This document shows positions 2,430 through 28,317 of a stretch of 64,000 nucleotides of DNA, piece by piece. Made by a program: the position numbers and the translations under genes. Location of the stretch: NCBI GenBank assembly GCA_964016885.1, contig OZ024752.1, positions 25,420,001-25,484,000 of the forward strand. Direction: 5' to 3'. The stretch comes from Eledone cirrhosa. Its lineage: Eukaryota. Below the pieces are notes generated by a model. The model had not been told where the DNA came from, did not search any database, and was given only the letters and a program-made list of their open reading frames with translations. The first letter of the stretch is position 1. Every line of letters begins with the position of its first letter.

Positions 2430-2586
2430 TTAATCTGTTATTTTAATAAATATTTGCTCTACGGTTCTTATATATTTGATATATATTTTCCTTATCGAGC
2501 CCTCTTTCGATTTTAGTCTTCAATTTTATTATTATTACTATATATATATATATAGTTATGTAATAAACAACATAAGGCAATTATTC

Positions 2587-2640
2587 CATTTACCAGTGGT
2601 TTCTTAAAAGCAAAAGATTTTGCTTTCAATCCTCAGAATG
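2587..2640 (-). ncRNA. Type I hammerhead, family C distal copy (GUA site)
   Basis: catt-CTGAGGA-ttgaaagcaaaa tc ttttgcttttaa-GAAA-ccactgg-TA-aatg. Confidence 0.85.
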
Positions 2641-3839
2641 AAAAAATCCTGGTCTGTTTATTGAATTTGGATTTTAAAAACAAAAATGCAATCTATATGA
2701 AAGTGAGGCTGGAGAAGGAGGAAGGAAAGGAAAAATAAAATAAAACTATACATGCAAACACACACACAAAAACACGCACACACACACACACAAAAGCATA
2801 CATACACACACACACACACACACACACATATATATATATATATGTATATATATATATATATATATATATACATATATATCTATATACATACACTTATACA
2901 TACACACACACACATATATACACACATATATGTGTCTATAAATACACACATACACATACATATACACATATATACATACGCACATAAACACATCCATACA
3001 TACACATACATATATACATATATACACACATACATACACATAGAAACATAAATATAAATACATATACAGACACACATATACATACATATATATATATATA
3101 CATATACATATACGTATATATGTGTGTACAAGCATACACATACACAAACATAGCCATACACACATACATATACATACATTCATACATGCACACAAACATA
3201 CATATATACACACGTACATACATACACATACATAAATGCACTCCTCTACATATTCACACACGCAAATAAATATAAGAAAAAATATATATATAAAACAAAT
3301 TTTGACAGCTATACAAACGGCGGGTAGCTGGACAGACACACGTGGTAAGTAATACACACAAATGCCCTTATACATACGTACGAAATAGTAAATACATACA
3401 CAAACTCTCACACATACATATACATATACAAATACATAAACACATACATACACATACACAAATACATGCACGCACACGCACACGTATACAATTATACACA
3501 CACATATGTATATGTATATATATATACATACATATATATATATATACATAAATATAAAAATACACACACATATATATGTATACATACACACACACATATA
3601 CACACATAGCTATACAATTATACACATACAAATACGTACATATCATAAACACGCACAACCAAACACAAAAACACACACACACACATACATATATATATAG
3701 AGAGATATACACACACATACATACACATATACATGTGTGTGTGTGTAAAACTCAGTCTTAGATAATTCATATGAACCTTACATATACATATATATAGTAG
3801 TAAAGTAATAAAGTAATAAGCAACATAAGGCAATTATTC

Positions 3840-3893
3840 CATTCACCAGTGGTTTCTTAAAAGCAAAAGATTTTTCCTTCAATCTTCAGAATT
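3840..3893 (-). ncRNA. Hammerhead, family C proximal copy (GUG site, probably inactive)
   Basis: CTGAAGA...GAAA ccactgg TG aatg; stem II partly mismatched. Confidence 0.65.
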
Positions 3894-4286
3894 AAAAAAA
3901 CCTGGTCTATCTATATATACATACATATACACACACAAATATATATATATATATATATATATATATATATATATATATATATATATATATATATATATAT
4001 AAATATACATACACATACACATAGGTATGTGAAGGGCAAGGCAAAAAGAATATATGGGGGGGGGGGGGCATAGGAAAAGGTGAAATATAAGGGGAGGAAA
4101 GGGAGAAAAAATATATATACAAGAGTACAGAACGTAGATTCAGCAAAATAAAAAACCGTAGCAGAAGTAAAGAGCAGAAAAGGAGTTCAAGGCGGTTGAT
4201 TTATCATAGAAGGGTCAATCCAGTTACAGATCAGATGCGATTTCAGATGAGGACAGCATCTGAAGATCTCAGTCTTTGAGTTAAGG

Positions 4287-24128: not shown

Positions 24129-27100
24129 TAACATTATTTTAGAAATTAATTTAATTTTAATTTAAATGTTAGTTAACCTATAAATTTAATTTAATTAAAA
24201 TTCTATTACAGATGAGAATATAAAATATTATGTAATCATAAATTGTGAAAAACCTTTTAATATTACTAATATATACTTAGTAATTTAATTTATAGATTAA
24301 TTTTAATTTATTTAAACCTTTTATTATAATTCTTTTACAGATAAAATATAACAAAATATCGTGTATCCAATGACAGAGAATTAATTTTTAGTATTATAGA
24401 CCTAATTAATATACATTTTAGAAATATATTTATAATTTGGTTTTAATTTTAATCAACCTAAAAATTTAATTTAATTGGCTTAAAATTAGTATCCTTATAC
24501 AGACGAATTGCAGAATGTCATGTAATCATAGAATGGGATGTGTTTTGGATATATACCTAGTTAATATATTCTTTGCAATTTTTGAAAAAATATGTATATG
24601 TATATGTGTATGTGTATGTGTGTGTGTGTGTATATGTGTATATATGTATATATATATGTATATATATGTGTATATATATATGTGTATGTATATGTATATG
24701 TATATGTATTAATTTTGATTTCTATTTGCATATAATTATATTCTGCTATTGATAAAATACAATATCTGTTTTATTTATTATATACCTAATTAACATATAC
24801 TATAGAAATAAATATATAATTTTTAATTTAGTTAACCTATAATTTATATTCTACTACCGATGTAATACTTTATTTGTTTTTTCCCTATTACTAAATTCAG
24901 TTCCTAATATTGATACCATAACGTTATTAACTTTAATTTAGTTATACTATAATTAATACTCTACTACTATTTAACTTCAAAATTCTGCTTCAAATATTAT
25001 AAACCTAACTAATTTACACCTTAGAAATCAATATGTTAACTATCTTTAGTTTAGTTAACATATAATTTAATGGTATACTTATTTATTTTGAAATGCATAA
25101 ATTTTGCCTTATTTCTTGTTTATTGTATTTCCTAACACTGAAACTATGTAAAAAAATATACATTGGATCCTGATACGGATAATATTCTATGTTTCTTGAA
25201 ACATATATTTACTATAATCCCCTTCTCCAACCCCCCCCCCCCCCCCTTTCCCCCATACTATTACCATCTGTCTTTGTAGGCGTGTATGTATGAATATATA
25301 TGTAGGTAGGTGTATGTATATATGTTTGGGTATTTATATCTGAATATAAAAATACATATATGCGCATGCAAATAAGAATGTAAGATTGTGTGTGTATATA
25401 TATGTGTGTGTATGTATGTGTATATGTGTATATATGCATGTGTGTATATATGTGTGTATGTGTATGTGTGTATGTGTATATATATATATATATATATATA
25501 TATATATATATATATATATATATATATATGTGTATATATGTATATATGTGTGTATGTATGTATGTATATGTGTGTGTGTGTATATATATGTATGTCTCTC
25601 TATTTATATGTCTATCTTCGTATCTATGTGGATATATGTGTGTGTGCGCATGTATACACATATATGTGTTTATGTGTATATGTGTGTATGTGTATATATG
25701 TGTGTGTGCACACACATGTATATGTGAGTGTGTATATGTGTGTGTGTATATGTATGTGTATATATATATATATATGTATCTATGTGCGTATATATGTCTA
25801 TATTCGTATGTGTATATATATATGTATATATATATATATATATATGTATATATGTATGTGTTATATATATATATATTATTTATTATTATAATATAACTTA
25901 TGTGTATGTGTGTATATGTGAGGGTGTGTATATGTATATATATGTGTATATATGTGTGTAAAAAAATATATATGTGCATGTCTGTTTTTTATGTGTGTGT
26001 ATATATATATATGTGTATATATATGTATATGTAGGTGTTTGTATGTGTATTTTTGGTTGTATGTGGGTGTGAGTATATATATATAAGTGTATGTGTGTAT
26101 ATATATATATATATATATATGTGTATATATATCTCTATTAATGCGTGTATATATGTATATGTATATGCCTTTTTCTTTGTATGTCTGAGTTGGGTGAGGG
26201 TGTAGTGGTGTTTCTATGTATATACGCATATATGGATGCGTATGTATTTGTATATATGAGTATATGTAAGTGCGTATGTATGTATGATTATATATCTAAT
26301 TCTATGTATGAGTATATATGTGTGTATGTATGTTGTGTGTGTATGTAAGTATATGTCTATGTGTGTATATATATATGTTTGTATGTGTGTGTATGTATCT
26401 ATGTATGTGTATGTATGTACATATATGTCTATGTATGTGTGTATGTGTATGTATGTGTATATATATATATATATATATATATATCTTCATTTTTTATATA
26501 TATGTGTGTGTGTGTATGTGTGTGTATGACTAAATATGTATGTGTGTATGTGTGTATGTGTATATATATCTATGTGTGTGTACATGTATGTATGTGTATG
26601 TGTATGTGTGTATATGTGTATATGTATGTATGTGTGTATATATATATATATATATATATATATATATATATGTGTATATATATATATATATATATGTATA
26701 TGTTCCTCTATTGGTATATGTATATGTGTATAGGTATATACCTTTTTCTTTGTATGTCTGAGTTGTGTGAGAGTGTAGTGGTGTTTGTATGTATATACCG
26801 ATATATAGATGCCTAAGTATTTGTCTGTATGTATGTATGTATGTCTGTATGTATTTGTGTGTATATATAGGTATGTATGTGTATATCTGTATGTATATAT
26901 GTATGTAAGTGTATGTATATGTGCGTGTATGTGTGTATATATATGTGTGTCTATATAGTATGTGTGATTATATGTGTATGTATGAGTGTATGTGTATATA
27001 TATATATATATATATATATATATATATATATATATATATATATATATATATATATATATATATATATATGTGTGTATATATATATGTGTATTTATATGTA

Positions 27101-27967
27101 TGTGTGTATATGTATGTATGTGTGTATATGTATATGTTTATATATGTGTGTGTATGTATGTACTAAGTGTGGATGTGTGTATATGTATGTATGTGTTTGT
27201 ATGTGTGTATGTGTATATATATGTGTGTATGTACGTGTATGTATATATATATATATATATATATATATATATATGTATATATATATATATATATATATAT
27301 ATATTTTCTTGATATATTTCTTTTTTCTTTTTTCTTTTTCTTTTTCTTTTTCTTTTTCTTTTTCTTTTTCTTTTCTTTCCTTTTTAATGTTTATTTATTA
27401 TTTATTATTTTTTATTTTCTTAGTTTATAGATACATCTATATTAAGCAGTCTGCCCAAACAGTTGAATACTGACCTCTCCCCCCCCCTCCCACCTAATTT
27501 CTGTATCTTGATCTAAATGTGTGTGCCAATGTTTATGTGAGTGAATTAATATCCATGTGCTTAGGATTTTATATCCACATATATATATGTGAGTGGGGGT
27601 GTGTGTGTGTTTGTATGTTCGTAGTTTATGTGTATGTTTATGCATATACGCGTATGTATGTGTGATTGTACGGATATGAGTGAGTATGAAAATATGTATA
27701 TACACTTATTTCAAATTTATGTGTCTATACGCATCTTATCTGTGCATTATAAACTTACAGAGACATTAACCTTGAAATTTTGTATTTGCATCCATCCTTT
27801 TCGTATGCGTATACAAGTTGTGCATACATTTTTGTAAAATATGTGTAAGGGTAGTTACATGTATATACACACACCGAACTGCATTAAACCTTTTGTATTT
27901 TCATTGGTCAATTTTGTTCCCAAACGGACCTGAAATTTGGAATTGTTGTTATTATCAATAAATATAT

Positions 27968-28121
27968 TTCATTATTTCTGAAGACGGCGTATATATGTGT
28001 TGGTATGTATATTTAATCTTGATAGTTTGTATAATTTTGTATAATTTTGTACATAGATCTGTTGAATATGCATGCCAATTCTAACACATATATATCCTAG
28101 AAACGATCGTTAAATAATGAA
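27968..28121 (+). ncRNA. Hammerhead with ~115-nt stem II, family D (GUU site)
   Basis: 10-bp stem I ttcattattt/aaataatgaa; CTGAAGA; GAAA cgatcg TT. Confidence 0.78.
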
Positions 28122-28317
28122 CTTTTTTTGTTTAATATAAGGAACTGTTTTCATTGTTTATTCATTATTTGTTTAATATTTTATATATATATATATATAT
28201 ATATATATATATATAAGGATCGATCGACTTTCGTCAAATCGGACCGAGGAAACAATGTTTCCGTTGGTCTTTCCAGTTGCTAGTACTATCTATCGGTCGC
28301 AACTCCAGGTAGAAGGA

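Follow-up and report, generated by a model that had tools for sequence, protein, structure and literature searches.

The locus and the question it raises

Can a retrotransposon that lands in a simple repeat bring along, with each insertion, further copies of the very sequence it targets? The question is raised by a 64,000-nt stretch of the Eledone cirrhosa genome (contig OZ024752.1, positions 25,420,001 to 25,484,000; hereafter the window, position 1 being its first letter), in which Penelope-like elements (PLEs) lie among long TA and TG repeats. An earlier account drawn from the letters alone (hereafter the sequence-only reading) had proposed that these PLEs insert into (TA)n, carry kilobases of microsatellite in their 3' untranslated regions (UTRs), and by delivering new target sites build nested arrays and much of the host's microsatellite load. 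Here, we argue for a narrower answer centered on one family (family C). We consider it probable that family C is a PLE, likely of the Hydra clade, residing in (TA)n and holding ~1 kb of TG/TA mosaic between the stop of its open reading frame (ORF) and its terminal hammerhead in three separate copies, and that this mosaic is likely a passive cargo, copied through RNA, which likely added few of the targets used in the window.

Microsatellite ("masked") bases are those under a mask of purine-pyrimidine alternation, which covers 31% of the window. PLE ends (n = 36) and PLE units (n = 28) were delimited by hand, the ends from anchor motifs, and two unclassified inverted-repeat units were kept out of both counts. 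The family letters A to M are labels of the present analysis (D, E and F were matched to those of the sequence-only reading by size). No host gene was found among the window ORFs of at least 150 aa. We stress that this is a selected 64-kb stretch, from which a genome-wide share of microsatellite cannot be derived.

A microsatellite mosaic common to three copies

Family C is represented by three copies, of which the first bears an inverted arm:

4286->2556, minus strand: family C copy 1 (C1); ORF end at ~4185-4286, internal hammerhead at ~3835-3905, terminal hammerhead at 2591-2636
4287-4423, plus strand: inverted short arm of C1, a hammerhead with a ~70-nt tail, followed by a CA/TA tract (4427-4704)
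13827->11527, minus strand: family C copy 2 (C2); UTR of 1,985 nt with 1,209 nt of mosaic, then a tail and (TA)13
20098->23104, plus strand: family C copy 3 (C3); TA tract on either side, UTR of 1,686 nt without its inserts (916 nt masked)

The 3' UTR of C1 measures 1,630 nt, 870 nt of which are TG/TA mosaic, and its tail-less 3' end rests on (TA)8; the 5' break of C2 adjoins (TA)4 and the end of a family F element. Once two inserts in C3 are set aside, the three copies align end to end and have 11 anchors in common, in the same order, with four islands that are 89-98% identical among them. The mosaic tracts lie between the ORF stop and the terminal hammerhead, and the spacing of the anchors differs by up to 165 nt (e.g., 95/260/216 and 486/541/451 nt in C1/C2/C3). 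The ordered islands separated by TA/TG tracts of variable length, as described in the sequence-only reading, were thus recovered. Each UTR holds 11-17 runs of (TA)4 or longer (the longest reaching 31-43 units), as well as two hammerhead copies, internal and terminal, situated 1.25-1.5 kb apart. Free folding of these six motifs gave stem II in the terminal copies and more weakly in the internal ones, and did not recover the full three-stem hammerhead in any of the six; in C3 the core of the terminal hammerhead is mutated (G to C).

The mosaic itself was compared through informative 16-mers lying wholly inside the mask. C1 and C3 have 60 of them in common (position rank correlation 0.66), C2 and C3 19 (1.0), and C1 and C2 15 (1.0), against a background of 0-13 between family C and the tracts of families D, E and F. 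The mosaic was accordingly inherited with the element, clearly so for C1 and C3 and less strongly, by the 16-mer measure, for C2.

The possibility that the three copies are segmental duplicates with shared flanks was checked as well. The best local match between their flanks spans only 26/32 nt, the islands are 2-11% diverged, and the 5' breakpoints differ (4286, where the inverted arm joins, 13827 and 20098). Unrelated flanks and differing breakpoints argue for separate retrotransposition events rather than segmental duplication.

Cargo in the other families

Insertions of four further families bear on how general such cargo is:

23247-28181, plus strand: family D, a 5'-truncated Hydra-clade PLE; ORF to 24128, hammerhead at 27978-28111, tail-less end on (TA)17
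9336-9844: second family D terminal palindrome, with tail; TA on either side, no microsatellite cargo
17280->13837 (long arm), short arm to 17880 with tail: family F inverted-repeat insertion; hammerheads at 13858-13896 and 17754-17792
33792-38162: family E inverted-repeat insertion; Neptune-like endonuclease ORF at 35076-36236 (minus strand), left end off TA
1-2538, plus strand: family A, a Hydra-clade PLE; 1-kb UTR of which only 4-9% is microsatellite, (TA)8 at the tail-less end, which faces C1
~40224-43962: second, longer copy of family A; RWR and DKT motifs (in 40850-42950)

The presumed UTR of family D (4,053 nt, 1,881 of them masked) begins with ~150-nt tandem copies of the ORF end and belongs to a single long copy, the two remaining copies being short terminal palindromes. 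The long (left) arm of family F (3,444 nt) has 2,700 nt of masked TG/TA mosaic and no ORF, and is likewise the sole long copy. The arms of family E (1,284 and 1,428 nt, with ~650 masked nt each) differ by 10 mismatches and 6 gaps over 693 columns, and are the two arms of one insertion. The likeness of D, E and F to family C thus holds for the masked tracts, which are there, and is presumptive as regards inheritance between copies, with single long copies in D and F and one insertion in E. Similarly, the "kilobases" of carried repeat fit D and F, while family C holds ~1 kb and E 0.65 kb.

The UTRs of families C to F all read as TG/TA on the sense strand (TG 35-47%, CA 0-5%), a common bias that favours, without proving, a UTR identity for the D and F tracts. 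In families A, B and G the masked fraction is 2-12%, which indicates that cargo is not general to the PLE families. Family I offers a second two-copy case of cargo, with microsatellite downstream of the hammerhead (45176-45327 and 48653-48905; 91 and 188 nt). The family D hammerhead (27978-28111, 20915-21048 and 9649-9783) is marked by a 115-nt insertion in stem II and a U at the cleavage position.

Clade membership

Families A and E have both the reverse transcriptase (RT) and the endonuclease motifs of endonuclease-bearing (EN+) PLEs, and C keeps the C-terminus only. The 5' truncation, inverted arms and optional tail that mark these elements were all observed, and both end types also occur in public contigs. 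Pfam GIY-YIG matches were obtained for E and B and for neither A nor D, and a putative hammerhead pattern with stems I-III was seen in C, D, F, B, H, I and M.

The Hydra clade, as defined in the accessible text of Craig et al. 2021 (PMC8557442), combines a C-terminal GIY-YIG domain, RW[K/R] and DKT motifs, a CxCX5C linker, no CCHH, and CxxC and CxH around E and N. In families A and D the linker reads CNCRNRADC and CNCRNKANC, the GIY-YIG core is free of cysteine pairs and the terminal motif is present; family A has RWR and DKT in its RT, and insertion is into (TA)n. All three family C copies are truncated downstream of the linker and the RT motifs, leaving only CSLC..E..LN..E..CPH. C2 codes for 76 C-terminal residues of a GIY-YIG protein (13601-13829; CxxC..E..LN..E..CxH), with 37% identity over 54 aa to family A. 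The Neptune/Nematis linker (CX2-5CxxC) is present in families E and G. For A, C and D the Naiad clade was rejected, their endonuclease being C-terminal and hammerheads being present (Naiad has an N-terminal endonuclease and no hammerhead), and the Neptune clade was dropped after motif comparison with the Hydra definition.

Database searches added little: no hammerhead was among the best 150 of 394 Rfam matches (those listed were microRNA-like and below the gathering score), NCBIfam gave a single sub-threshold match for five proteins, and a metagenome scan returned 295 pattern matches with no relative among them. A protein search with family D found five relatives, among proteins of 125-399 aa.

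Insertion junctions

The claim that nearly all 3' junctions abut (TA)n was borne out by measurement of PLE ends. A (TA)4 run starts within 10 nt of 33 of the 36 listed PLE ends, as against 19.7% of window positions, although the 36 ends are not independent and some were placed where the repeat starts. The exceptions are ends of families E (33792), G (49958) and H (62021). All 14 tail-less ends at which another copy runs on into unique sequence adjoin TA; with three short-stopping ends added, the figure becomes 15/17 (two H ends among them being one duplicated event). Furthermore, all eight listed non-inverted 5' breaks have a TA run just upstream (read by eye). TA both upstream of 5' breaks and at tail-less ends indicates that it is the target and not an element tail. 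A telomerase-style addition of TA by the RT was also considered and is unsupported, C and G interruptions downstream of 3' ends showing no strand bias (12 vs 14, p 0.85).

There are two points at which PLE copies end, one leaving a 70-135-nt tail and the other none, and an inverted arm is often present; the long copies have the mosaic in common and the short 5'-truncated ones have none. In public run X1, which may be related to the source sample, 3,068 contigs matched the 320-nt terminus of family C, and a second organism yielded 61. Loose ends of the form C(TA)n were seen at the tail-less point 23033 in 32 contigs of X1 (agreement 0.7, among the loose ends listed), and past the tail ~30% of the depth is T and the rest mostly C. 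Joints to the opposite strand within 22813-23105 were not counted, as any TA/TG repeat read can produce them. Restriction-site-associated DNA (RAD) runs X10 and X11 placed 8,444 and 8,683 reads on the family C terminus; many of these molecules stop at fixed AATT sites (22925, 23010 and 23096), which makes them uninformative about flanks.

The tails of families C, F, A, M, L and D have a short motif in common, (T/A)GAG(C/T)(A/T)C, which closes a hairpin in family C (z -2.7). It was found at the following sites:

23034-23104
11527-11600
17814-17880
40836-40880
63347-63435
50020-50100
21119-21255

The word ATAGAGCACTCT also occurs in the ends of the sea-cucumber elements Hydra-1_Ajap and Hydra-2_Ajap, as given in the accessible supplement of PMC8557442. 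We regard the tail motif with ATAGAGCACTCT as a candidate signal by which the RT binds or initiates.

Two nearly identical copies of a composite made up of an L tail, ~24 TA units and an H end lie ~4 kb apart (46157-46333 and 50047-50225), each adjoining another PLE. Such duplication offers another way for a flanking TA tract to be copied.

Carried repeats as possible targets

Two inserts lie within the UTR of C3:

20697-21255: family D terminal palindrome; 418 nt, 100% self-complementary, with a ~135-nt tail, within a TA run
22043-22631, plus strand: ~590-bp insert in a TG/TA tract, ending in a CxxC..H peptide

Both had been pointed out in the sequence-only reading, and both proved real and missing from C1 and C2. 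The TA run in question has ~5 units in C1, and in C3 ~20 and ~32 units stand on the two sides of the palindrome. A PLE did insert, at a later time, into one carried TA run. No PLE features were seen in the ~590-bp insert, which we take to resemble an internally deleted derivative of an RTE-type long interspersed element (LINE).

Beyond this case, reuse of carried repeats was scarce. Only one of the 28 PLE units lies in a UTR tract, where 27% would be expected from the UTR share of pure (TA)4+ bases (binomial p ~0.002, a rough value, since ages differ and units are not independent). The surroundings of the insertions also differ from the cargo: TA content is 44-60% in the UTR tracts of families C to F and 74-93% in the 21 flanking tracts measured, so that the flanks do not look like decayed cargo. 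The following TA-dominated flanking tracts (78-90% TA dinucleotides) host most insertions of their part of the array (4427-11386):

4427-4704
6591-7546
8015-8321
9845-10185
10704-11386

Moreover, 14 of the 28 units are shorter than 600 bp and have little or no cargo. With one nested unit, flanks of another composition and half of the units this short, the feedback loop is unsupported as the builder of the nested array or the source of much of the host's load. The self-feeding step is seen once, and is probably minor in the window.

Weighing the explanations

We reason that the following sequence of events would account for the locus. The GIY-YIG endonuclease would nick (TA)n and prime reverse transcription (by analogy with what is known of the clade), which may start at one of two points and thereby give tailed or tail-less ends; the pattern is that observed here, and the mechanism is borrowed from Poseidon PAc (accessible text of PMC11167929), where the tail was traced in vitro to two RT start sites. 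In a master lineage an unconstrained T/G-rich UTR may have grown by slippage and local tandem duplication; tandem copies are seen in families A, C, D and G. The RT would then copy through the grown UTR, which would leave long copies with a common mosaic and short 5'-truncated ones without it. Within each copy the run lengths would change over time, and now and then a carried run would be reused, as when one TA run took the D palindrome and one TG/TA tract the unrelated insert. The array itself would have grown mainly by repeated insertion into TA-dominated flanks, split by each insertion and expanding by slippage.

Several points weigh against this account. The shared 16-mer counts of C2 (15 and 19) barely exceed the background (up to 13), the passage of the mosaic through RNA is presumptive, and the clade of family C, likely Hydra, is read from a C-terminus of 76 codons. 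The locus collects more than PLEs: a short interspersed element (SINE; on both sides), the 3' end of a presumably RTE-like LINE and the 3' end of a CR1/L2-like LINE also adjoin TA, and the TA association may in part be passive. Of the masked microsatellite bases in the window, 48% fall within the listed UTRs; should the D and F tracts truly be UTR, this would be a large share for cargo. Lastly, the count of 1/28 was made by hand, and takes no account of the younger age of the UTR tracts or of possible growth of the flanks since insertion.

A strong form of self-seeding, in which the TA runs of UTRs are among the chief origins of new targets and of dinucleotide microsatellites in the host, would draw on those bases (which include 27% of the pure-TA ones), on the many long runs in each family C UTR, on the palindrome lodged in one of them, and on a family that is multi-copy and also present in a second organism. 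We hold it to be unlikely, given the single nested unit, the composition of the flanks and the many short copies. Summed contig depth points the same way, being 83,000-124,000 on the UTR side of the terminal island and 267,000-445,000 on the tail; depth is not copy number, and the difference hints that many copies stop before the cargo.

About equally doubtful is a passive sink, in which host slippage fills neutral DNA with TA and TG, and fragile (TA)n or relaxed selection gathers all element classes with no special targeting by the endonuclease. The SINE at 28216-28435 and the LINE ends at 29042 and 60362 would fit it, as would the like behaviour of Hydra-like (A, C, D) and Neptune-like (E, G) families; passive accumulation has been proposed for Drosophila Waldo elements (accessible text of PMC3812793). 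However, almost all Hydra-clade families, from four phyla, are listed with a (TA)n preference in the accessible part of PMC8557442, a purified PLE protein cleaves AT-rich DNA (PMC11167929, in the portion available), and the mosaic common to the family C copies did not arise anew in each.

Least of all do we credit local segmental duplicates, conversion products or assembly artefacts as the origin of the three family C copies or the palindromes: although all three copies lie within 21 kb, the L-(TA)n-H composite is duplicated and one D palindrome is perfectly self-complementary, the differing flanks, breakpoints and islands described above, tails on one arm only (as described for PLEs), arm identities of 87-97% in the remaining palindromes and the recurrence of both end types in public contigs make this very improbable, and for family C largely exclude it already.

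A bolder extension of the favoured, narrower account is that several PLE lineages of this host evolved 3' UTRs of 1.6-4 kb in which their own (TA)n target travels through RNA, seeding a measurable share of the genome's TA/TG microsatellites together with their own landing sites, and that the family C hammerhead pair could release the microsatellite block between its members as a retrozyme-like RNA (dimeric hammerheads are described in the accessible text of PMC4209133). We put this forward as speculative and rather unlikely. If genome-wide counts were to agree, the very high dinucleotide-repeat load of such a genome would be linked to a single retroelement group, and the spread of a target by the element that uses it could be followed in a countable case. 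Even in a weaker form there are practical consequences, as consensus builders and short-read assemblies likely break at such tracts and the elements would then appear in annotations as fragments and simple repeats, and microsatellite markers derived from them would have multi-copy flanks.

Other elements in the window

Further repeats and unclassified units share the window with the PLEs:

28216-28435: SINE, presumably tRNA-type, with TA on either side
29043-32183, minus strand: LINE ORF of 1,046 uninterrupted codons with APE endonuclease, RT and PHD finger, which we take to be RTE-like; (ATG)n tail by (TA)16
52607-54276: Helitron-like fragment of a PIF1 helicase, with a family B-like PLE directly joined on
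56072-60362: LINE whose Q-rich ORF1 is Myb/SANT-like and whose endonuclease-RT ORF2 is frameshifted; a 240-bp tandem duplication precedes it
7547-8014 and 10646-11444: the unclassified inverted-repeat units, beside or enclosing TA tracts

Comparison with known systems

The resemblance to the Hydra clade, as far as the accessible parts of PMC8557442 describe it, extends over the C-terminal GIY-YIG domain, the RW[K/R], DKT and CxCX5C motifs, a canonical hammerhead and insertion into (TA)n. Hydra-1_Obim, Naiad_Obim and Naiad_Ovul are listed there with a (TA)n preference, so that such targeting includes Octopus, and by eye the end of Hydra-1_Obim resembles the C-terminus of family C (LNS.TE....CPH....L..NW). 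(TA)n targeting is itself known, and nothing new is added to it here. Size is where the elements part. The published Hydra elements are generally <3 kb (a typical length, not a strictly defining one), whereas here the truncated D copy alone reaches 4.9 kb, and the UTRs measure 1.6-2.0 kb in C and presumably 4 kb in D. The 3' UTRs of Hydra-1_Obim, Hydra-1_Amil, Hydra-2_Amil and Hydra-2_Ajap are, by eye, ~0.2-0.3 kb with no long microsatellite (same source, in the sequences available), while those of C and D are about half TG/TA mosaic and family C has two hammerheads, unlike the published elements.

Among other PLEs, Neptune and Nematis have a microsatellite bias (Arkhipova 2006, as cited in the accessible text of PMC8557442), and families E and G carry their linker. 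Poseidon PAc (accessible text of PMC11167929) is alike in its tandem and inverted arms, its optional tail and AT-rich cleavage, and differs in a 30-40-nt class of tail (70-135 nt here) and in preferring ATT. An O. vulgaris study counts recently active Penelope families and leaves their UTRs undescribed in its available text (PMC13282606).

Microsatellite seeding by retroelements has been described for CR1-L3 LINEs, which spread microsatellites genome-wide in colubroid snakes (PMC6050309), and for L1 and Alu (PMC3812793). In the accessible portions of both sources the LINE-seeded repeats are mainly 3' tails, whereas the PLE repeats here are internal, upstream of the hammerhead, and include the element's own target. 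The searchable literature yielded no paper on PLEs with microsatellite UTRs of kilobase size; Repbase, most subscription papers and the O. vulgaris repeat library of PMC13282606 lay outside the search and may hold such families.

A further parallel is Chlamys-1_pPol, which is listed as preferring (CA)n and whose consensus has ~45 CA units right after the stop codon; it belongs to a clade with an N-terminal endonuclease, and its cargo is <0.1 kb (PMC8557442, in the part available). The microsatellite passages of that paper hold no discussion of this CA cargo, and further consensus sequences in the available supplement have internal CA/TG runs. Chlamys-1_pPol is a precedent for an element carrying its own target repeat. 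Thus, (TA)n targeting and the seeding of microsatellites by retroelements are already published, and the new part, as far as the searchable literature goes, is the size of the cargo, in Hydra-type PLEs with unusually long, microsatellite-filled 3' UTRs.

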